A stretch of DNA of 64,000 bases from Myxococcales bacterium (GCA_023954815.1 JAGSHB010000003.1:8998-72997), one strand, 5' to 3'; positions 4,376 through 15,446 are shown, counted from the stretch's first letter. The notes: generated by a model not told the origin, from the sequence alone. Translations and numbers: made by a program.

Positions 4376-6280
4376 CTATTGCAGCGGCGTGCCCGGCCAA
4401 CGCTTGCAGGCGATCTGCAGCTTTGAGCCCGGTTTTGCGCGCTGGCACATGCGCAATGCGCCTTCGATTGGCGCCCGCATGGTCGGCCGCGCTTCCGATA
4501 GCACGCGCAGACGACGCAGCGCGCCAGCCGGTCTCCGTGCCTGTTGCTCGGCGAACACTGCGGCGGCCACCCACGATGGGTTCGTGTCCGGAGATTTGGT
4601 GAACCGCGCGGCCCAAGACTTCGCCGCGGGATCTGCCGCCGCCACACCGGCGACGTAGACTTTGCGCCCCCACGTCAAATCAACACGCTTGAGCTGCTGG
4701 CCTGTGACGAAGGCCCGCCCATAACGGCGGCACATTACATCCGCGTCGATCGCAGCCTTGCGGGTCGGGTCGTCTTGGCGGCGCAGGGTGCCCGCCTTTT
4801 GGATCAGGGGATCGAGCACGTCGCAGTGGCCCAGTCGCGTCTCGGCTTGGACGAGCAATGTCCACGGCGCCGGCGCCTGTGGATCGATGGTGTGCGCCGC
4901 AGTGAGATGCGTCGCCGCGCCCTGATTGTCCTTCGCACCAAGTCGCAAGCGGCCGAGGTTGTAGCGCATCCGCAGGTTGTTCGGCCGAACTGCGGCGCCG
5001 TGGGCGAAGAGCTGCGCCTCCGACTGCCAGTGCTCGCCTTCAGCAGCTGATGCACTCGCCCAGGGCACCAGCAATCCGAGCGCTAGGCCCAGCGCCGCAC
5101 GCTGCGCGATACCGCCTGCGCACCAAGCTCGCCCAAGCAGGGCGGCGATCATCCCCACCATCGCGATAGACGGCAGAAAGAGCAGCCGGTCGGCAAAAAC
5201 AACGGTGGATGCGAACAGCAGGTTGGACACGGGGAGCCAAGCGCCACCGAACCAAGCGATGGTGGCCGCTGGTGTGCCCGTACTGTGCGCAGACCGCACC
5301 CGCAGCAAATCGCGTACCGCCAGCGCCACGAGGCTGAGCACAATCACGCCGCCTGTCAGTACGAGCCAACCGGCTGGGTGCAGCACTGGCAGCGAATCAA
5401 AGGTCTCATCCGGTGCGAGATCGTAGGGCCACAGCAGCTTTTTCGCAGCGTAGGCGACGAGCCACAGGGCACCCAGCAGGCGCTCGCCCACGCCGACATG
5501 GGCCAGCGGATTGTCGTGAGCGGCGATGAATGGCGTGCCGAGCCAGGTCGCGCGCCACGCCAGCCACAGCAAGCAAACCACTGCCGTCGCTGCGAGCCAT
5601 GTTGCAGCGGTGCGCCGATCGCCATCCCGTTGGCTCCACAGCCACACCGTCCACGGCGCCAAGACGGTCAACGCGGACTCCTTGCTCCACAGGGCCACGA
5701 GCATCAGCATGAGGGAGGCGGGGCCAGCCCACTTCTGGCCGCGCGCACAGGCGATGAACGCCAGCGTCGCCGCCAGCGCCAGCGCAGCAGCCTGCAACTC
5801 CGGGCGATAGGCCACGCACAGCACCGACGAGGCATGCAGTGGATGAGCGGCGAAAAGCAGGGTCGCCAAAGTCGCGCTCACCCGAATGAGCTGCGGTGGC
5901 TGACCGCGCAGAAGTGAAGCCACCAGGAGCCCAACCAGCCCGCAAATCAAGGCATAAAGCAGCAAATTGACGGCATGCCTACCGGGGCTACCGAGGTCCA
6001 GACCCGCTTCCACCGCATAGCCCAGGGTGACCAGCGGGCGACTGAGACCCTGGGTGGCAAACCCGCGGGCCGGGCCAAACCAGGGCGTGGTGAAGATCTG
6101 AGCGATATTCGGCGGCCAGCGCACATTGGCGTTGTCGATCACGGCCGGATGATCATCGTGCACGTAGCTGGCAGTGAGGGCAGGAGGGCCAAATAGCAGC
6201 CCCGTGAGGACGAGCCCGAGCCCCATGAGCGCCAGGGGCAACTGGCGACCACCACGGGGCGGACCGGCGGTTTGGCTCAT
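4376..6280 (-). CDS. Polytopic membrane protein with C-terminal TPR repeats (TMTC/PMT_2-like, GT39/DUF1736-type putative glycosyltransferase)
   Basis: About 11 predicted TM segments in the N-terminal 400 aa, then a TPR-like region. The start ATG overlaps the rodA stop (ATGA). Confidence 0.6.
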   Translation of the reverse strand: MSQTAGPPRGGRQLPLALMGLGLVLTGLLFGPPALTASYVHDDHPAVIDNANVRWPPNIAQIFTTPWFGPARGFATQGLSRPLVTLGYAVEAGLDLGSPGRHAVNLLLYALICGLVGLLVASLLRGQPPQLIRVSATLATLLFAAHPLHASSVLCVAYRPELQAAALALAATLAFIACARGQKWAGPASLMLMLVALWSKESALTVLAPWTVWLWSQRDGDRRTAATWLAATAVVCLLWLAWRATWLGTPFIAAHDNPLAHVGVGERLLGALWLVAYAAKKLLWPYDLAPDETFDSLPVLHPAGWLVLTGGVIVLSLVALAVRDLLRVRSAHSTGTPAATIAWFGGAWLPVSNLLFASTVVFADRLLFLPSIAMVGMIAALLGRAWCAGGIAQRAALGLALGLLVPWASASAAEGEHWQSEAQLFAHGAAVRPNNLRMRYNLGRLRLGAKDNQGAATHLTAAHTIDPQAPAPWTLLVQAETRLGHCDVLDPLIQKAGTLRRQDDPTRKAAIDADVMCRRYGRAFVTGQQLKRVDLTWGRKVYVAGVAAADPAAKSWAARFTKSPDTNPSWVAAAVFAEQQARRPAGALRRLRVLSEARPTMRAPIEGALRMCQRAKPGSKLQIACKRWPGTPLQ

Positions 6281-7392
6281 GTTCTGGCTCTACGACGCAG
6301 GGCGATGTTGACCAAAAATCCGATGCCGATGAGGACGGTCAGCACACTGGAGCCGCCATAACTCATCAGGGGCAGGGTCATACCGACCACGGGCAGCATG
6401 CCGATGACCATCCCTGCGTTGATGAAGAACTGCCAAAATATGAGGGCCGCCACCCCCACCGCCACAAGGGCATCGTATCGCTCCCTGGCATGGTTCGCTA
6501 AATACAGCGCCCACCATAAAACCCCCATATACAAGCCGAAAAGCGCGACTGTACCCACCAAACCAAAGAGCTCCGCCCACGCCGCCAGGGCAAAATCTGT
6601 GTAGAGAAAGGGCAAATGTCGGAGCACCGACCGCCGCGCGTCATCCGAATCTCGGCCGAGCATGCGCCCAGAGCCAACGGCCCACAGCGCCTGTTCCGAC
6701 TGCGAGGCCCGTGCCGTGCGTCGCTGGGTGACCGCGTTTTCATCCAGGGCCATCCACGCCTGCACGCGGCCTTTTTGGTAGTCGCGCACCGCACCCATTC
6801 GCCAAGCGATTGGCACGCCGATGAGCAGCAGCAGGGCTCCTGCGATCAGCGTCTGTTTGCGCACACCTTCGTACAAAATGATCGAGCCGCCGATCATCGA
6901 TACACACAGCGAGGTACCCAGGTCGGGCTCCAAGTTGATGAGAATCACCGGCGCACCCACCAGCAGCAGGGGCATTACCAAATGGCGCAGTGGCCATTCG
7001 ATGGTCCGTCGTCTGGCGTCAAACCAATCCGCCAGCATCAGCACAACGGCGAGCTTCATGAACTCGGACGGCTGCATATTCATCGGCCCGAGCTCGATCC
7101 AGCGCCGGCTGTGGTTGATCTCGCGACCGAAGATCAGCACGGCGACCAGCAGCACGCAAAGCGCCAGGTAGATGGAAAAGCCCATGCGTCGGATGAAGGC
7201 CATGTCTAGACCAGCCGCGACGCCACCGCCCACCAGGCCGACTACCAGCCAAATGGTCTGGCTGCGGTGGAAGTTGGTGTCGTGCAGCGAGTCGATAAAC
7301 CACAGATTGTAGATGGAGGAGGCGCAGATCAGCATCAGGCATCCGAGGCCGATAATCAGCGATCCTTGTCGCATCCGGGCGGCGAGATTCAT
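6277..7392 (-). CDS. rodA: Rod shape-determining protein RodA (SEDS family peptidoglycan glycosyltransferase)
   Basis: SEDS motifs PSEFMKL, EPDLGT and SYGGSS. Sits directly downstream of PBP2 with a 4-nt overlap. Confidence 0.9.
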   Translation of the reverse strand: MNLAARMRQGSLIIGLGCLMLICASSIYNLWFIDSLHDTNFHRSQTIWLVVGLVGGGVAAGLDMAFIRRMGFSIYLALCVLLVAVLIFGREINHSRRWIELGPMNMQPSEFMKLAVVLMLADWFDARRRTIEWPLRHLVMPLLLVGAPVILINLEPDLGTSLCVSMIGGSIILYEGVRKQTLIAGALLLLIGVPIAWRMGAVRDYQKGRVQAWMALDENAVTQRRTARASQSEQALWAVGSGRMLGRDSDDARRSVLRHLPFLYTDFALAAWAELFGLVGTVALFGLYMGVLWWALYLANHARERYDALVAVGVAALIFWQFFINAGMVIGMLPVVGMTLPLMSYGGSSVLTVLIGIGFLVNIALRRRART

Positions 7393-9629
7393 CGCGTGCC
7401 TCCCACGGGTTCAAAGTCACGTGCGATGTCAGGTCCATAGGGAGCGGGCGGCGGTGCAGCGGGCGTGGGAGCCGGGGCTGAGCCGACGGGGAACTTGCCG
7501 AAGTAGCGGGTCATGATGCGCTTGGCGATGGGGCCGGCGACGTGACCACCGTGACCGCCGTGCTCGACAAAGACCGCAACCACGATGCGCGGACTTTCGA
7601 TGGGCGCGAACCCGACAAACCACGCGTGATCGTCCTTGAGCCAGCGAACCACATCGGGCGGCATACCTGGGCGAGCGCGCTGGGCGGCCTCCGCGGTACC
7701 TGTCTTGCCGGCCATGGTCACATCTTCCAGGCGAACCTTTCGCGCGGTGCCGTTCTTGCCCTCGACCACCCGGCGCAATCCCACGCGAATCGCAGCCAAC
7801 GTCGACGATTTTATCCCCATCTTCCGCGGCTTGCGGCGCGCCATGGGTGGGATGCGCTTGTTCTTGCTCTCGAACGCTTCGACGACGCTGACATTGGGCA
7901 AAGTGCCATTGCGGGCGATACCGGCGTAGACCCGCGCGACCTGCAACGGGGAGGCGGTGGCATCTTTCTGGCCAACGGCCGTCGACAGCGCAAAACCGGG
8001 GTAATAGCGGCCCATGCGCTTGGTGTACCAGGCCTTGGTCGGCACGTGCCCCGTCCGCTCGCGTACCTCCACGCCGGTGGCTTCGCCGAATCCCATCTTG
8101 CGCGCGTATTTGGCCAAACGGTCGATGCCGAGCTGCTCGCCGAGCTTGTAATAATAGACGTCACACGACTGAGCGAGCGCCTTCGACAAGTCGACTTCGC
8201 CGTGACCGCTCTTCTTGTGACAACGAAAACGGCGGCCACCAAACTCGTAATAACCAGGACACCAAAAGGTCGTCTTGGGGGTGATGAGCCCCTCTTCCAG
8301 CCCCGCCGCAGAGGCCACCACTTTGTAGGTAGACGCCGGCGGGAAGGGGTGCACCGCCTTGTTCATCAGGGGGGCGTACGGAGAGGCGTCGGTTCGCGCC
8401 TTGATCTCCGCCGTCAGCCGACCGGACCACGCGTTGGGGTCAAAACTCGGCTTGGAGTACATCGCCAGCACCTTACCGGTACGCACATCCAGCGCCACAG
8501 CTGCGCCAGAGTGCACGTGAGCCATGGCGACCTTGGCCGTGCGCTGCAAGTCGAGATCGAGCGTCAATCGCACGTTGAGCCCAGGAACTGTGGGTTTTGG
8601 CTGCATGGCCGCCAGCAGTTCGTCGAGCCCCTTGGCACGCTCGTCCCGGCCCCGTCTGCGCACCAGCACCTGCTCGCCATCCACCCCGCGGAGCAGCGCG
8701 TCAATGCCCCGCTCGAGCCCAACACGACCGACCGTATCGTTCAGTGAATAGCGCGATGGGCCACCCTCGTCGAAGGGCCGCATATCCCGCCGATTGACCC
8801 GGCTCACGTACCCCAGCAGGTGACTGGCCAGATAGCGGTAGGGATACTCTCGTTGGATCGCCGTTCGGATGCGCGTCTCGGGCAAGTCGTGGAGATGGCT
8901 GCGCAAGATCGCCACCTCATCGTTGTACGTCCGGCCGCACATCGCACACCGGAGCGCATGATGACCCTTGTGCACCGGCGTATCGTCATAGGGGCAGGTG
9001 TCCCGGTTGAGGAACTCCCGCGCACAGACGGGGCAGTGCAGGCCGTCGCCGTTGCCGCTCGCGACCAATTTTCGGCGATGAACGGGGCAGGTATGACGCC
9101 GCGGCACCCGCTCGTAGGTCCGGCCACAGGTCGTGCAAAATGCGTAGGGTTGATCGCCCACCAAATCGAGGCGATGGGAGTCGTAGGGGCAGTGAGACGA
9201 GACCAAACCGCGCCGCACAACCACCGGCTTTCGTCGTCTCGGGTCGGTCGGTTTGGACAGCTCGGCGACGAGCCCTTTGACCTCAGAGTCGGTTAGATCG
9301 AGCAAGTGACGCAGGGTTTGTGCGATCGGCGTGACCCGCTTGGCCTTGACCCGATGGCGCAGCACCTCCAGTCGATGGCTTTCGATATTGCGGGCCATGA
9401 CGTCGCCCTTTGAGCCGATAATCAGGCCGCGCGGCGCCGTCGACCGAACCTTGGACACCCGCTCGATGGTAGCGAACTTCTCGTAGCGCTCGCCGCGCAC
9501 CGCCTGCACCAGCAGCAGCCGTGCACTCAGCAGCATCATCCCAGCGGCGACCACCGCGAACGCCACGCTATTGCGGGCTTCGAAGCTGCGTGCGTCGTGG
9601 GACGGACCGAGTTGAAAGCGGGAGTTCAT
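7389..9629 (-). CDS. mrdA: Penicillin-binding protein 2 (MrdA) transpeptidase with a Cys-rich zinc-ribbon-like insertion
   Basis: N-terminal TM segment. Transpeptidase motifs (STYK-like ASTYKVV, SCD, KTGTA). Lies next to mreD and rodA. Insertion at aa 147-231 carries 4 CxxC-type pairs. Confidence 0.9.
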   Translation of the reverse strand: MNSRFQLGPSHDARSFEARNSVAFAVVAAGMMLLSARLLLVQAVRGERYEKFATIERVSKVRSTAPRGLIIGSKGDVMARNIESHRLEVLRHRVKAKRVTPIAQTLRHLLDLTDSEVKGLVAELSKPTDPRRRKPVVVRRGLVSSHCPYDSHRLDLVGDQPYAFCTTCGRTYERVPRRHTCPVHRRKLVASGNGDGLHCPVCAREFLNRDTCPYDDTPVHKGHHALRCAMCGRTYNDEVAILRSHLHDLPETRIRTAIQREYPYRYLASHLLGYVSRVNRRDMRPFDEGGPSRYSLNDTVGRVGLERGIDALLRGVDGEQVLVRRRGRDERAKGLDELLAAMQPKPTVPGLNVRLTLDLDLQRTAKVAMAHVHSGAAVALDVRTGKVLAMYSKPSFDPNAWSGRLTAEIKARTDASPYAPLMNKAVHPFPPASTYKVVASAAGLEEGLITPKTTFWCPGYYEFGGRRFRCHKKSGHGEVDLSKALAQSCDVYYYKLGEQLGIDRLAKYARKMGFGEATGVEVRERTGHVPTKAWYTKRMGRYYPGFALSTAVGQKDATASPLQVARVYAGIARNGTLPNVSVVEAFESKNKRIPPMARRKPRKMGIKSSTLAAIRVGLRRVVEGKNGTARKVRLEDVTMAGKTGTAEAAQRARPGMPPDVVRWLKDDHAWFVGFAPIESPRIVVAVFVEHGGHGGHVAGPIAKRIMTRYFGKFPVGSAPAPTPAAPPPAPYGPDIARDFEPVGGTR

Positions 9630-9734
9630 CTGAGGGACCGGAGTAGGGGGAAGATACTGGCTACCAGGGCGATCGCAGCCCCGATGGTGAGAAATACGAC
9701 CAGCGTGTCGCGATCGTACTGAAACGACACGCTG

Positions 9735-10250
9735 CTAACGGAACATCGAGCCGGCGGAGCTGCGACGTTCGAAGAGTCTGCCCGCTCTGTCGAGCAGGGC
9801 AAATTGCAGCGGCGCGGCGAGCATGGTGATGAGCGACAGGGGCAGCGCCATCCGCAAGGCTTGGGCATGGCTGCCGAATTCGCGGTGGAAAATCGTCTCG
9901 AACATCATGAACAGCCCAGTCGCAACGAGCGTCGCAATCGCTGCGGTCGCCATGAGGCTCACCGGCGAACGCAAATCGGTGTGTCGTGACGCCAACCGCA
10001 TGCCCAGAAAGACCAGTACGCCCACCTCAGCAAACACCCCGACCGGGGCCGCCAAACAGAAGCCGTCTTTCAGCAAACCGATGATAAATACGGTCAGAAT
10101 GCCGGGAAGTAGCCCACCGCGATGCGCTGCGAACATCGCCGTGATCACCAGTACGTCGGGCGCGAAGAGTTGGCTACTGAACGAACCCAGCAGCGGCGAT
10201 TCAAGGCCCAAGAGCAGCCAGGTGACGAGCAGCCATGCGACGTAATTCAT
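9735..10250 (-). CDS. mreD: Rod shape-determining protein MreD
   Basis: About 170-aa polytopic membrane protein sitting between mreC and mrdA. Confidence 0.75.
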   Translation of the reverse strand: MNYVAWLLVTWLLLGLESPLLGSFSSQLFAPDVLVITAMFAAHRGGLLPGILTVFIIGLLKDGFCLAAPVGVFAEVGVLVFLGMRLASRHTDLRSPVSLMATAAIATLVATGLFMMFETIFHREFGSHAQALRMALPLSLITMLAAPLQFALLDRAGRLFERRSSAGSMFR

Positions 10251-10334
10251 GTGCGTTCCTGGTTCCTGCGCGGGCAGGTGCTGTGGAGCCCCGTGTGAGA
10301 GGCGGTCACAGCGGGCTCAAGTGAGTCATGGGGG

Positions 10335-11195
10335 CTATAACGCCACACCGATCCCGAAGTTAATATTGAACTGATCAAGGGCCATATTCGACACATTTTC
10401 CGGCCTTTCAGTCTCCGTGAAGCCGTCGCTGGTGGTCAGTGAATTCCACGTGGTCTGCAGGTATTTCACCTCGACATGGAGCCACCACGCCCGCCCAACT
10501 CGAGAGGGAAAGAGCCGCACCCCGGCCACGTAGCCGAAGGCCCATCCACCGTAGTTGACGTGGGGTAGGTCGACCGTCTCCTCGAAGCAGTCGCCAAACT
10601 CGTCGCACACGTCCTGGGACTCCGACTCCGACGTTCCCATGGACACCAGCAGCCAATCGATGCCGACGTAAGGATCGAAGCGAGCGCCAGGCCGCGGATG
10701 CCAGAGCAGGCTTGGGCCGATGGTGAGCAGGGTGCTGACGTCGAGACCCTGACCGAGTTCATTTTCCCAGGCGCGCGTGTTGAGTGGCCCGAAACCAAAC
10801 GATAGACGCAGGCCGATGTCGAACATGCCGCCGGGGGTATGACCGCCCAAGAAGAAGTCGAGTCCGGTGCTGTCTTCAAATTCGAGCTCGTTGGCGAGCT
10901 GGGCGTTCAATCCGAATGAGCGGTCACCAAAAGCAGTGTAGTGGGCCAGCGCCATCGAAAATGACCCGCCCCAACGCTGGGGAATGCGAGCTCCGCTACG
11001 ACGGCGAGGCGGTTGACTACGGGGGCCACGCTGCTGCATGGCCGGTGGCGTCATTGGCTGGGCAGGCTGTGCCTGGGGCGCCGGTTGTCGCCGGGCCGGC
11101 GGTGCGCCAGCAGCCGGCGGGTGGGCGCTAGCGGCGCTCGACCACAACAGCCCAATCACGGCAATGAGGCAGATCCAATGGCGGTGCGTGTTCAT
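10335..11195 (-). CDS. Secreted beta-rich protein, putative outer-membrane beta-barrel, inserted between mreC and mreD
   Basis: Signal peptide MNTHRHWICLIAVIGLLWSSAASA. Pro/Gln-rich linker, then alternating-hydrophobic beta strands. RBS AAAGGAG 7 nt before the ATG at 11193-11195. The ORF track's longer N-terminus is likely non-coding. Confidence 0.6.
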   Translation of the reverse strand: MNTHRHWICLIAVIGLLWSSAASAHPPAAGAPPARRQPAPQAQPAQPMTPPAMQQRGPRSQPPRRRSGARIPQRWGGSFSMALAHYTAFGDRSFGLNAQLANELEFEDSTGLDFFLGGHTPGGMFDIGLRLSFGFGPLNTRAWENELGQGLDVSTLLTIGPSLLWHPRPGARFDPYVGIDWLLVSMGTSESESQDVCDEFGDCFEETVDLPHVNYGGWAFGYVAGVRLFPSRVGRAWWLHVEVKYLQTTWNSLTTSDGFTETERPENVSNMALDQFNINFGIGVAL

Positions 11196-11226
11196 CCACA
11201 GACTCCTTTGACCGGACATCACGACC

Positions 11227-12165
11227 CTACCCATCCGGCGTATTGGCTGGGTCCACACGCACACGTTTGCGGCGCGCGGCTTCGGGGGCCGGCAGGCTGT
11301 CGCTGTCTTTCACCACAGCCCGATAGCCCGTGACGATCAGCACCTCTTCCAAGGTGGCGAACGCGACCGCAGGCGTCAGCGTATATTCGTGGTACGGGCC
11401 GCGCTGGGTCGATTTTCCCGACGCGACATGGCCGATCTCCAACCCCGGCGGAAACACCCGATCGTGACCGGTTGTGACCACGGCGTCCCCGGGGGCGATG
11501 GGCGTCCGCCTGACCGCGCGGTCGAGGTGAACAAATTCCACGCCGAACTGTTTGCGCCTGCCCTTGCCCTTGACCGTACCGACCACACCCTTGCCGCTGA
11601 TCGACGCGTGGGCCTGACTCCGACTATCGGTCACCAGCATCACATCAGCCCAATCACCAGAGACCTTCTCGATACGCCCCACAACCCCGCCGTGGGTGAT
11701 GACCGCCAGCCCTGGCCGCAAATTCTCGATGCCATCCACGTCGATGCGAACCCGCAACACCCGGAAAAACTGGCTCACCTCTCGGCCGATGACCTTGGCC
11801 GGCACCGTGTCGAGCTCCTTGCGACCCTGTTTGAAATCACACAGCTTTTTCAGGCGCCGCAGCTCTTCCTGCAAGGCCCGACTCTTAAGCGCTTCGCCCA
11901 AAAGTAGCCGATTGTCTCGCTTGAGCTCCTCGTTATTGCGCTTGGTTTTTGTGAGCAGCACGTAGTCGTCGACCACGCCGCCCACCGAGCCGAGACTCGC
12001 ACGTGTGACCGCCTGCATCGGCGCGGTCAGGGCCATGAGCACCTTTTCGATGGGGCTGGTGTTGCGGTTGGGCTTGCCGTGCCAATACATCAGCGCCAGC
12101 GGCAAGATCAGCACGAGGCCGAGCAGGAGCGTGCCCTGATACCGTTGCAGCAGATCGCGAAACAT
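11227..12165 (-). CDS. mreC: Rod shape-determining protein MreC
   Basis: N-terminal TM segment, coiled-coil region and beta-rich C-domain typical of MreC. Upstream of mreD. Confidence 0.85.
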   Translation of the reverse strand: MFRDLLQRYQGTLLLGLVLILPLALMYWHGKPNRNTSPIEKVLMALTAPMQAVTRASLGSVGGVVDDYVLLTKTKRNNEELKRDNRLLLGEALKSRALQEELRRLKKLCDFKQGRKELDTVPAKVIGREVSQFFRVLRVRIDVDGIENLRPGLAVITHGGVVGRIEKVSGDWADVMLVTDSRSQAHASISGKGVVGTVKGKGRRKQFGVEFVHLDRAVRRTPIAPGDAVVTTGHDRVFPPGLEIGHVASGKSTQRGPYHEYTLTPAVAFATLEEVLIVTGYRAVVKDSDSLPAPEAARRKRVRVDPANTPDG

Positions 12166-12174
12166 CGCTAGCTC

Positions 12175-12645
12175 CTACAATCCGGCTTCGCGACGCGCGC
12201 GAGGCATGGCGATGAACAAGTGAGTAAACAACAGGGCGACCGTTGCTAGACCAAGGCTGACTGGTAGCCAAAACAGGGGCTGGGCACCCAGGTCGACGGC
12301 CACATCGTCGACCACTGTCCACCCGACTTGGGTCTTTTCAAAGAGCAGCGCTGTCCAAGCCAAGATGACGACTGTGCTGAACAACAGCGAGCTGGTCCGG
12401 CGCACCCAAGTGCGTCTCAGTCCAAGCCTCGCGTAATTGGCGACCACAATGGCGGTACAGAGGTTCATCAAAGCGTAGAGATACCAGTCTTCGAAGCGCA
12501 GTTTCCAGGTGATGACAGTCGTGCAGACGGCGCTTGCGAGATAGAGCCAGACCGCGAAATTGGCCAAAGCCCGCGCCCGTACACGCCAAATTCGGGGCGT
12601 GTCATCGGCGCTCACGGTCGGGGTGGATTCAGCCATCGGTCCCAT
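12175..12645 (-). CDS. Small 4-TM membrane protein of unknown function (start uncertain)
   Basis: Hydrophobic segments in a 185-aa ORF that begins at a TTG; the internal ATGs at 12643-12645 and 12634-12636 are plausible starts. Lies 10 nt upstream of mreC. Confidence 0.45.
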   Translation of the reverse strand: MGPMAESTPTVSADDTPRIWRVRARALANFAVWLYLASAVCTTVITWKLRFEDWYLYALMNLCTAIVVANYARLGLRRTWVRRTSSLLFSTVVILAWTALLFEKTQVGWTVVDDVAVDLGAQPLFWLPVSLGLATVALLFTHLFIAMPRARREAGL

Positions 12646-12737: not shown

Positions 12738-13091
12738 CTAGGGCGCGTAGTCGTATTTCGCGAAGTTGGTCTCGATCTCGTCCTGCGACGGCGAGTGGCC
12801 CTTCGTGACTTCGGCGATTTCGAAGTCGTCCTCAAAATCGACCATCTTGTAGTTGAGGGCGATGTCCTCGTTGAAGACGTCTGGCGTCTCGTCCTCTTCA
12901 AAAACAGCCTTCCAGGGGCACGCGGGCTCGCAGTTGGTGCAGTCGATGCACTCGTCTGGGTTCACGTACAGCTGATCGGGGAAGGTTGCCTTATCGTCGC
13001 CGGTGTACTCGTAGATGCACTCAACGGGGCAGACATCGGCGCACGCGGTGTCCTTACAGTCTACGCAGAGTCGGGTGATGATGTAGGCCAT
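12738..13091 (-). CDS. 7Fe/8Fe-type ferredoxin (2x[4Fe-4S] binding)
   Basis: Motifs CVDCKDTACADVCP and CIDCTNCEPACP. RBS GGGAG 6 nt before the ATG. Confidence 0.9.
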   Translation of the reverse strand: MAYIITRLCVDCKDTACADVCPVECIYEYTGDDKATFPDQLYVNPDECIDCTNCEPACPWKAVFEEDETPDVFNEDIALNYKMVDFEDDFEIAEVTKGHSPSQDEIETNFAKYDYAP

Positions 13092-13140: not shown

Positions 13141-14166
13141 CTAGCTCATTGCGGCGATAATGGCGTCGGCCATCTCTCTTGTCGAGGCTGAGCCGCCATG
13201 CATTGGCACAACCGCTTGACCACGGGCAAGTACTGCGGACACAGCCGTACGGATCGCATCGACTGCGCTGGTCTCACCGAGGTGGGTCAGCAGGTCCACC
13301 GCTGGCATCAGCAGAGCTAGCGGGCTGGCACACAGCTCACCGGCATCATTGGTACTGCCGCCGACGTGTTGCGTCGCTTCGAACACCCGCACGCCCTCAC
13401 CGGTATTGGCGCTGGTGACAATGAGACTGGAGCCCACGAGGCCGGCACCGATGTCGCCGAGGATGTCCCCAAACAGGTTGCCGGCGACCAGCACGTCGAA
13501 CTGCTCTGGCCGGGCGACCATCTGCATGGCGGCGTTGTCGGCGATGATGTCTTTGTGGGTGATCTGCGGGAATTCTGCCGCGATTTCCTTACCGATCTGG
13601 CGGAAAAGCCCATCGCTCATCTTCATGATGTTGGCTTTGTGCACCACCGTGACCTGCTTGCGACCCAAGCGCACGGCTTCCGAAAACGCGAAACGGATCA
13701 CTTGTTCAGCTTTGTGACGGGTCAGCACTTTGATCGTCTCAACCACGCCGGGCACGATGGTGTGTTCGATACCGGCGTAGGTGCCTTCCGTTAGCTCGCG
13801 TACCAAGATGATGTCCACGTCTTCGTAGCGACTCGGCATCCCTGCAAGACTGCGCAGCGATCGCACACCGGCGAAAACCCCGAGCCCTTGGCGCAGGGTC
13901 ACGTTCGGCGAGGTGTACCCTCCACCGACTGGCGTGCGCAGCAGGGGCTTGATGCACAACCCGATGTCCTTGATTCGTTCGATGGTGCTCTGGGGCATCG
14001 GATCGCCGCAGGCATCGACCGAGCGGACGCCGACGGGAAGCGGATGCCAGTCGATGGCCACGCCAGCGGCTTGTACGATGCGCTTCACGGCGTCGCTAAG
14101 CGCGTCGCTTGTGGGGCCGCCCTGAAGCAGGGCAACGGCGGGAACGGCGGAAATGGGCTCGCTCAT
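13141..14166 (-). CDS. Isocitrate/isopropylmalate dehydrogenase family protein; divergent paralog lacking the N-terminal GDGIGPE motif
   Basis: Motifs SPNVTLRQ, ILVRELTEGTYAG, NLFGDILGDIGAGLVG and HKANIMK. RBS AAAGGAG. Confidence 0.75.
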   Translation of the reverse strand: MSEPISAVPAVALLQGGPTSDALSDAVKRIVQAAGVAIDWHPLPVGVRSVDACGDPMPQSTIERIKDIGLCIKPLLRTPVGGGYTSPNVTLRQGLGVFAGVRSLRSLAGMPSRYEDVDIILVRELTEGTYAGIEHTIVPGVVETIKVLTRHKAEQVIRFAFSEAVRLGRKQVTVVHKANIMKMSDGLFRQIGKEIAAEFPQITHKDIIADNAAMQMVARPEQFDVLVAGNLFGDILGDIGAGLVGSSLIVTSANTGEGVRVFEATQHVGGSTNDAGELCASPLALLMPAVDLLTHLGETSAVDAIRTAVSAVLARGQAVVPMHGGSASTREMADAIIAAMS

Positions 14167-14211: not shown

Positions 14212-15222
14212 TTAACCGTGGGTACCGAGCGCAGCCATAATCGCGTTGGTGAACTGCTCGGTATTGGCGCTGCCACCGAGGTCACCCGTGCGCACCTCTC
14301 CGCGCTCTAACACTGAAAACAAGGCCTTCTCGACGTTGTTAGCCGCTTTGCGCTCGCCGATGTGCCGGAGCAAGAGGACCCCGGACTGCACCAACGCTGT
14401 GGGGTTCGCGATCCCCCTGCCGGCGATGTCTGGTGCAGAACCGTGGACTGCCTCAAATACGGCGTATCGATCTCCGATGTTGGCGCCTGGCACCACACCC
14501 AGACCACCAACGAGACCGGCACACAGATCACTCAGTACGTCGCCATACAGGTTTTCCATGACCATGCAGTCGTACTGATTTGGGTCGATGACCAAGCCGC
14601 GAACGACGTCGTCGATCAAGCGTGCCTCGTGGGTCACAAAGGGGTAGCCATCGGCCACCTGATTGAAGGAGTCGAGAAAAAGGCCATCGCTCAGCTTCAT
14701 AATCGAAGCCTTGTGGACCAGGGTCAGCTTGTCGCGGCCCTCGTTGCGCACATACTCGTTCGCCCAGCGCGTAATCCGCTTGCAGGCCCGCTCAGAGATG
14801 ACGCGCAGGGTCTCGACGACCCCTTCCACCGGAGAGTGCTCACGACCCGAGTACAGCCCTTCGGTATTTTCTCGAAAGACGACCAAATCCACGTTTTCGT
14901 GACGCGTCGGCACACCAGGAATCGACTTCACCGGTCGCAGACTGACGTACAGGTCGAGCGCTTGCCGGATAGCGACATTGACTGAGGTGAAGCCGTGACC
15001 GACGGGCGTGGTGATCGGCCCCTTCAGGGCGACCCGGGTCTGCTCGACACTGCGTAGGGTCACGTCGGGCAGCGGCGTGCCGTGGCTTTGTACCGCAGCG
15101 GCCCCCGTGGGAACTTTCGTCCAGTGAATATCCACGCCAGCTGCGGCCAAGATGCGAATCGTCGCGGCGGTGACCTCTGGGCCGATGCCGTCGCCTTCGA
15201 TGAGGGTGAACTCGTACGTCAT
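14212..15222 (-). CDS. NAD(P)-dependent isocitrate dehydrogenase, IDH3/homoisocitrate-dehydrogenase-like
   Basis: Internal start MTYEFTLIEGDGIGPEV, then SVNVAIRQ, VVFRENTEGLYSG, NLYGDVLSDLCAGLVGG and HKASIMK. Confidence 0.8.
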   Translation of the reverse strand: MTYEFTLIEGDGIGPEVTAATIRILAAAGVDIHWTKVPTGAAAVQSHGTPLPDVTLRSVEQTRVALKGPITTPVGHGFTSVNVAIRQALDLYVSLRPVKSIPGVPTRHENVDLVVFRENTEGLYSGREHSPVEGVVETLRVISERACKRITRWANEYVRNEGRDKLTLVHKASIMKLSDGLFLDSFNQVADGYPFVTHEARLIDDVVRGLVIDPNQYDCMVMENLYGDVLSDLCAGLVGGLGVVPGANIGDRYAVFEAVHGSAPDIAGRGIANPTALVQSGVLLLRHIGERKAANNVEKALFSVLERGEVRTGDLGGSANTEQFTNAIMAALGTHG

Positions 15223-15446
15223 GGTGCCTGAGCCTCCAGCGCGGCGATCGCGCGGCCGGACCTTAGCGATCAGGACCCGTCTGGGCAACCGGCCGCGCTG
15301 TATCCCGTCAACAATGGAGCAAGAATGGAGTTCGTGATGGCGCGGCCTCTGCGCGGACACAACGACGCGCGAGCTCGCCGCTGCCAGACACCGACCGGTG
15401 AGGTGTATACGGGAAGGTGCGTTCGGCTTGGAGTATCACCTGAAAA

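Follow-up and report, generated by a model that had tools for sequence, protein, structure and literature searches.

A predicted outer-membrane beta-barrel protein encoded between mreC and mreD in a Myxococcota Rod gene cluster

A 64,000-nucleotide stretch of DNA from a Myxococcales bacterium (GCA_023954815.1 JAGSHB010000003.1:8998-72997; hereafter the window) carries a cluster of elongasome genes in which mreC and mreD are separated by an additional gene, here called X, whose product is predicted to be a secreted outer-membrane beta-barrel protein. The most likely reading of this arrangement, and one that we consider probable, is that X is a general, lineage-specific small outer-membrane protein residing in a plastic mreC-mreD interval. 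The view of X as a passenger is founded on the variable content of this interval, on the faster divergence of X relative to the Rod genes, and on the unrelated genetic contexts of its distant homologs. Probably, therefore, the Rod complex does not have X as a dedicated subunit. The protein is of a known kind and its gene holds an unusual position that is conserved in the clade, and no strong claim of discovery is made.

The surrounding genes are those of a Rod cluster, as mreC, mreD, the class B penicillin-binding protein PBP2 (mrdA) and the SEDS (shape, elongation, division and sporulation) protein RodA are encoded together. All reading frames named in an earlier reading of this DNA (the original prediction) are present on the minus strand, where the gene order is two Iso_dh paralogs, a ferredoxin, a four-transmembrane (4-TM) protein, mreC, X, mreD, PBP2, rodA and a 634-residue membrane/TPR protein.

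Gene X and its predicted product

The original prediction placed a signal-peptide protein of about 287 residues between mreC and mreD. The open reading frame is real and encodes 286 residues from its ATG. NCBI lists the same frame as a hypothetical protein of a Myxococcales metagenome-assembled genome, and no database assigns it a name. The flanking gaps are short, as claimed, although each is one nucleotide smaller than the proposed 32 and 85 nucleotides (31 from the mreC stop to the X ATG, and 84 from the X stop to the mreD ATG). The good ribosome-binding site is also present, as AAGGAG located 7 nucleotides upstream of the ATG, and X also has the predicted signal peptide, the Pro/Gln-rich linker and the beta-rich domain, each of which its full-length orthologs keep.

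The reading frame, ribosome-binding site and signal peptide are conserved in six orthologs, among which length changes occur only in frame. Metagenome gene callers shortened the protein to 206-218 residues in two assemblies, but the NCBI call favours the long form, as do the ribosome-binding site and the conservation of the signal peptide. A longer alternative beginning with GTG at 11264, which would overlap mreC, was rejected because the ATG at 11195 has a ribosome-binding site and is backed by the orthologs and by NCBI. The predicted signal peptide was read directly from the sequence. All full-length orthologs have a hydrophobic N terminus ending in A-x-A or AQ, and this segment is modelled in X as a lone helix (residues 4-22).

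Structure prediction with AlphaFold2 points to a beta-barrel, as the original prediction had suspected, and gives it eight strands. A first model built from four sequences was mediocre (predicted local distance difference test score [pLDDT] of 67.7) and was replaced by modelling from 21 family sequences, which yielded five concordant models with mean pLDDT values of 83.5-85.0 and values above 90 in the barrel. In the model, eight antiparallel strands (residues 76-90, 109-119, 125-135, 154-165, 173-188, 212-228, 237-256 and 273-285, as assigned by DSSP) form a closed barrel with short turns on one side (residues 120-124, 166-172 and 229-236) and long loops on the other. These loops are L1 (residues 91-108), L2 (136-153, with a helix), L3 (189-211), which is a hairpin carrying the conserved pair C197/C203, and L4 (257-272). 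Residues E105, G136 and W250 are invariant throughout the family, whereas H212 is conserved within the clade only.

Sequence comparisons are consistent with this fold. Eleven of 21 family members match the Pfam family OMP_b-brl (PF13505) at E≤0.01, and the ortholog at locus L012 (GCA_030425545.1) scores 31.7 bits, above the gathering threshold of 28.7, while that at locus L007 scores 25.9. Among the 17 distant members, six have F, W or Y as the final residue. The last strand alternates hydrophobic residues (I-N-F-G-I-G-V-A-L), and the conserved domain of ~210 residues ends in GIGVAL. A sequence search with X detected no solved structure, and its identity to solved barrels is 8-17%. The protein ends with the barrel, and no match to an OmpA-like C-terminal domain (OmpA_C) was found. 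X belongs to the wider barrel fold class, although it falls outside strict Pfam membership.

Among known proteins, X most resembles the barrels of NspA, OmpX/Ail, OmpW and the transmembrane (TM) domain of OmpA/OprF, with which it shares a signal peptide, a predicted set of eight antiparallel strands joined by short turns on the periplasmic side and long loops on the outer side and, across its family, weak OMP_b-brl matches. It differs from them in its N-terminal Pro/Gln-rich, presumably periplasmic tail of ~52 residues, in the lack of a C-terminal OmpA-like domain, in its conserved L1 and L2, its Cys pair in L3 and its terminal Leu in place of Phe, and in its location between mreC and mreD.

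In the tail preceding the barrel, a HPPxAG tip is followed by a Pro/Gln-rich spacer, which varies in length, and then by a basic PPRRR...R..QRW segment adjoining the barrel. In X it is 27% Pro and 16% Gln, with nine Arg or Lys and no Asp or Glu residues. Ortholog tails are similar, having 51-65 residues, 25-33% Pro, 16-27% Gln and a basic PP(R/S)R...R segment. The mature N terminus reads AHPPAAG in X and (Q/S)(P/H)HPPxAG in its orthologs, and P26, P27, A29 and G30 are invariant in six orthologs while identity in the spacer averages 41%. We infer that the tail is periplasmic, since the topology of the modelled barrel places both termini in the periplasm.

Conservation of X and its neighbourhood

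Family searches with X returned 4 matches in a set of 5.8 billion clustered proteins and, in one of 1.84 billion, 18 representatives. In a word-indexed homology search, among the matches listed, alignment of the full-length protein added one protein and alignment of the barrel only added two. The family is rare and probably restricted to Myxococcota. Scans of genomes and of metagenomes gave the same two contigs of one assembly, and the synteny sample is small.

Close orthologs, which are 48-58% identical to X, all reside in the mre region. At least four further lineages (five with the window) have an ortholog in this same interval. X immediately precedes mreD in the window, L007, L002/L003 and L006/L005, and it lies within the mreC-mreD interval in L012. 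Because these orthologs share an interval in lineages with ~90% identical MreC proteins, X appears to be old and vertically inherited. The synteny comparison foreseen by the original prediction therefore supports retention of X at this position in related genomes, but it also reveals that the interval is plastic and that distant members of the family are located elsewhere. Five homologs with identities of 36% or less have readable contexts (P0006, P0007, P0009, P0015 and P0017), and none of these is near mre genes, while most have a stretch rich in Pro or Ser before the barrel.

Locus L007 repeats the full gene order of the window and has in addition a 72-residue membrane reading frame between mreC and X. 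This unannotated frame (L007 9313..9531, plus strand; MKFDAGTLLLGFVFSTFGFGLYRWGKK...) is preceded by a GAGGAA ribosome-binding site and sits in a 454-nucleotide mreC-X gap. Its product is apparently a small membrane protein, which is missing from the window.

At L002/L003 and L006/L005 the order is X-mreD-PBP2, and the genes immediately upstream encode a Peptidase_C92 protein and a 237-residue protein rather than MreC. The 237-residue protein was considered as a possible paralog of X and rejected (hhalign probability 2.6%). Neither a second copy of X nor homologs of the L006 upstream genes were found in the window. L006 and L007 come from one assembly (ERZ889078) and one CONCOCT bin, with coverages of 8.1 and 8.4, and their X proteins are 79% identical. 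Each contig has the X-mreD-PBP2 block with different upstream genes, so that the blocks represent either two populations binned together or a single genome in which the block is duplicated. The L006 contig breaks off within PBP2, at a point where the reading frame diverges.

The arrangement at L012 differs from that of the window. Here mreC is followed by a DUF2817 gene on the opposite strand, X, a Ser/Thr kinase gene, a gene for a C-type lectin protein on the opposite strand, a TPR lipoprotein gene and then mreD-PBP2-rodA. X cannot share a transcript with either mreC or mreD at this locus because opposite-strand genes intervene, and this layout implies that co-transcription is not a conserved property. 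Given the L012 layout and the location of distant homologs elsewhere, X is not a constant co-transcribed member of the cluster. The kinase (L012 11035..12945, plus strand) begins 95 nucleotides after X and has 636 residues, including a CxxC...C..H motif in its N-terminal part and a membrane segment in its C-terminal part. The X-kinase pair recurs on a second contig, L013.

The number of genes in the mreC-mreD interval thus varies from one (window) through two (L007) to five (L012, where two lie on the opposite strand), and the interval is not under strong architectural constraint. X also diverges rapidly. The X proteins of the window and L007 are 55% identical, compared to 90% for MreC, 82% for MreD, 84% for PBP2 and 93% for RodA. 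The physical or regulatory coupling to the elongasome that the original prediction envisaged is weakened by the order at L012, the extra reading frame of L007, the upstream genes at L006 and L002, and the contexts of the distant homologs.

Transcription of X

X and the rest of the cluster probably share a transcript in the window, which is made plausible by the single strand, the short gaps and the lack of a terminator. No intrinsic-terminator-like site occurs on the minus strand from mreC to rodA, and promoter and terminator scans of this strand inside the cluster gave nothing, with counts at or below shuffled expectation. The predicted RNA fold of the X-mreD spacer is unexceptional (z -1.8).

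The X-mreD spacer of the window has a CTTGAGCC...CACAC element in common with the corresponding spacers of L007 (10649..10761), L002 (1214..1326) and L006 (3579..3739), which are otherwise diverged. On the basis of four sequences no promoter is claimed, although this element could be a candidate internal promoter of mreD-PBP2-rodA. It has been described that mreD can possess its own promoter (PMC5580265).

Interpretation

We propose that X is exported by the Sec system, with its signal peptide probably cut after ASA, and that residues 76-286 insert in the outer membrane as an eight-stranded barrel of the NspA/OmpX/OmpW/OmpA-TM type, as the confident model and the fold matches suggest. The barrel would bear four long, ordered surface loops, whereas the Pro/Gln/Arg-rich N-terminal tail would remain periplasmic, extended and disordered, as expected from the barrel topology. 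An ancestor of this clade of uncultured Myxococcota may have acquired a gene of this outer-membrane protein family, or relocated one, into the mreC-mreD gap. The gap would later have gained and lost other genes while X stayed and was vertically inherited. Transcription entering from the upstream genes most likely passes through X in the window and continues into mreD, PBP2 and rodA. Its product would be a structural protein of the envelope or surface, and the basic proline-rich tail may lean on peptidoglycan.

Several observations fit less comfortably with a general surface protein. X is the sole constant gene of a variable interval in five lineages, and chance is not the only possible reason for this. 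The HPPxAG tip is invariant while the remaining tail is poorly conserved and variable in length. Loops L1 and L2, although expected to face outward, are as conserved as the strands, which is unusual for a generic surface protein. Furthermore, the window protein scores 24.8 bits on OMP_b-brl, below the gathering threshold, and its C-terminal residue is Leu (Arg in L012) rather than an aromatic residue.

An invariant tip on a variable spacer is the pattern typical of a short binding motif held on a tether, and on account of the HPPxAG sequence a tether is retained as a hypothesis of low probability. X might link the outer membrane to peptidoglycan, its N-terminal tail being bound covalently or otherwise to the sacculus as a substitute for Braun's lipoprotein, and the location beside side-wall genes would then merely time expression with wall growth. 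We regard this as unlikely, even though the N-terminal extension is basic and predicted to be periplasmic, its mature terminus is conserved and the tail occurs family-wide. In Brucella-type barrels, L,D-transpeptidases reportedly use a conserved Ala-Asp at the mature N terminus, and this motif is missing from the AHPPAAG terminus of X. Profile searches with X revealed no recognisable peptidoglycan-binding domain (OmpA_C, LysM), and no L,D-transpeptidase gene was seen beside it. There is precedent for such a link, in that PMC11527210 (citing Godessart 2021 and Sandoz 2021) describes cross-linking of beta-barrel outer-membrane proteins to peptidoglycan by L,D-transpeptidases in several bacteria that lack Lpp, with peptidoglycan-linked barrels in Brucella, Agrobacterium and Coxiella.

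Also improbable in our analysis is that X serves as an outer-membrane-anchored partner of the Rod complex. Its HPPxAG tip would dock on PBP2 (perhaps on the clade-specific Cys-rich insertion described below), MreC or MreD, and its tail would cross the periplasm and peptidoglycan to couple the position or integrity of the outer membrane to side-wall synthesis in the manner of LpoA/LpoB. X would then be a counterpart of these activators with a barrel for an anchor and a class B PBP-SEDS pair for a target. Consistent with such a role, X is kept in the mreC-mreD interval of five lineages, and in the window the gaps are tight and free of terminators. An invariant tip on a spacer of variable length would also suit a docking function. 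The tail is predicted to be disordered and, by our own estimate of ~0.3 nm per residue, is long enough to span 10-15 nm. Moreover, every genome with X at this locus also has the PBP2 insertion, in a comparison that includes no outgroup. However, the L012 gene is three genes from mreD and is separated from mreC by an opposite-strand gene, the Pro-rich tail is found family-wide, including in members far from mre genes, and X diverges far faster than its supposed partners.

That X is a PagL- or PagP-type enzyme modifying lipid A or another outer-leaflet lipid is very unlikely. Such an activity would explain the conservation of outward-facing L1 and L2, and one family member has a marginal match to Pfam PagL (E 0.0087), but PagL ranks behind five non-enzymatic barrels in the fold search and no His/Ser/Glu set is invariant family-wide, and for want of a conserved catalytic set a PagL-like enzyme was rejected. 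Finally, the view of X as a foreign gene, which the original prediction took, or as a recent horizontal acquisition, a strain-specific insertion or a spurious reading frame, might draw on the rarity of the family and on the namelessness of X in every database, but it is contradicted by third-codon-position GC content (0.72 versus 0.70-0.83 in neighbours) and synonymous-codon log-likelihood (-1.08, in a neighbour range of -0.72 to -1.20), by the orthologs in the same interval of five lineages, and by the confident fold and conserved motifs, and is rejected.

If X is a passenger, as we favour, then what was annotated as hypothetical can be named a small outer-membrane barrel, whose family is rare and probably restricted to Myxococcota, and the mreC-mreD junction is seen to tolerate gene gain in this clade. 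If instead its tail touches the Rod complex or newly made peptidoglycan, RodA-PBP2 would gain in X its first outer-membrane partner of the barrel type. RodA-PBP2 is not known to have an outer-membrane regulator, unlike the class A penicillin-binding proteins with their LpoA and LpoB.

Similarity to known systems

In Escherichia coli, LpoA and LpoB are outer-membrane lipoproteins that activate class A penicillin-binding proteins. X is likewise predicted to be anchored in the outer membrane and to have a long disordered periplasmic linker, which might extend to a peptidoglycan synthase, and it is encoded beside synthase genes. However, its anchor would be a beta-barrel rather than a lipid, as no lipobox is present, and a short conserved tip takes the place of a globular docking domain. 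The synthase encoded next to it is a class B PBP2-RodA pair.

Comparison can also be made with the barrels Omp25/Omp2b of Brucella, AopA/AopB of Agrobacterium and BbpA of Coxiella. X is likewise a predicted outer-membrane barrel whose periplasmic N-terminal part could contact peptidoglycan, and its lineage is not known to use Lpp (PMC11527210). The mature N terminus of X differs from those of the other barrels, and its tail is far longer and proline-rich. Since X lacks both a lipobox and the Ala-Asp motif, it belongs to neither the Lpo nor the Brucella-type family, even if it were to act alike.

The gene cluster resembles the canonical mreBCD-mrdAB arrangement in that mreC, mreD, PBP2 and rodA are co-oriented, with 4-nucleotide overlaps between the PBP2 stop and the rodA start and between the rodA stop and the start of the following membrane/TPR gene. 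It differs by having a ferredoxin gene and a conserved 4-TM protein gene upstream in place of mreB, an outer-membrane protein gene between mreC and mreD, a Cys-rich insertion in PBP2 and a large membrane/TPR gene at the 3′ end of the operon. The original prediction held that mreC, mreD, mrdA and rodA are contiguous in most bacteria, which is overstated. E. coli, for instance, has mreBCD in one operon and mrdAB in another.

Often mreB is found upstream of mreC. As the original prediction noted, it is absent from the position directly upstream of mreC in the window, where the 4-TM protein and ferredoxin are encoded instead, and the same is true of L007 and L012. No mreB was found within the 64-kilobase window by tblastn with a reconstructed E. 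coli MreB sequence as the query (best E 0.2).

Other features of the cluster

Features of X and neighbouring genes in the window
Feature	Coordinates	Strand	Remarks
Iso_dh paralogs, tandem	14212..15237 and 13141..14166	minus	39% identical to each other
2x[4Fe-4S] ferredoxin (117 residues)	12738..13091	minus	Pfam Fer4_7 and Fer4_10
4-TM protein (156 residues), family unassigned	12175..12645	minus	9 nucleotides upstream of mreC
mreC (312 residues)	11227..12165	minus	Pfam MreC E 2.3e-29; 90% identity to L007 ortholog
mreC-X spacer (31 nucleotides)	11196..11226	minus	holds X ribosome-binding site; no terminator-like site
Gene X (286 residues), predicted secreted outer-membrane beta-barrel protein	10335..11195	minus	NCBI MCO4760041.1, hypothetical
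Sec signal peptide, X residues 1-23 (MNTHRHWICLIAVIGLLWSSAAS)	11127..11195	minus	putative cleavage after ASA; no lipobox
Predicted disordered tail, X residues 24-75	10971..11126	minus	pLDDT 47-64
Predicted eight-stranded beta-barrel, X residues 76-286	10338..10970	minus	DSSP of AlphaFold2 model; fold matches; per-region conservation
X-mreD spacer (84 nucleotides)	10251..10334	minus	no terminator-like site; CTTGAGCC...CACAC element
mreD (171 residues)	9735..10250	minus	TIGR03426 E 3.8e-4, full profile; best PDB match MreD 9dvb_D, E 0.004
PBP2/mrdA (746 residues)	7389..9629	minus	TIGR03423 545.6 bits versus cutoff 455
rodA (371 residues)	6277..7392	minus	Pfam FTSW_RODA_SPOVE E 3e-78; NF037961 159 bits versus cutoff 150
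Polytopic membrane protein (634 residues), TPR-like C-terminal part	4376..6280	minus	weak TMTC_DUF1736 match

The assignment of mreD relies on weak family matches, a fitting size and its position, which are jointly enough. Its product is 81-82% identical to the L002, L006 and L007 orthologs.

The non-catalytic N-terminal part of PBP2 is interrupted by a Cys/His-rich insertion of ~95-120 residues (residues ~122-243, about 8901..9266), and alignment to the solved E. coli-type PBP2 skips query residues 122-243. Three CPYD/CPVH...CxxC units give the insertion a zinc-ribbon-like look, with weak zinc-ribbon matches only, and it is conserved in L006, L007 and L012. The insertion would be periplasmic, which is an unusual place for zinc ribbons.

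The 4-TM protein gene is found beside mreC at the same place in L007 (70% identity) and in L012, with gaps of 3-9 nucleotides. The protein has no Pfam or NCBIfam match and, given its location where mreB frequently resides, may be an unrecognised partner of MreC. The membrane/TPR gene after rodA is kept in L007 (679 residues, 61% identity) and in L012 (664 residues), and its weak TMTC_DUF1736 match suggests a possible GT-C/PMT-like glycosyltransferase. The order of the Iso_dh pair and ferredoxin ahead of the mre genes is kept in L001, L007 and L012, which constitutes an unusual metabolic neighbourhood for mreC.

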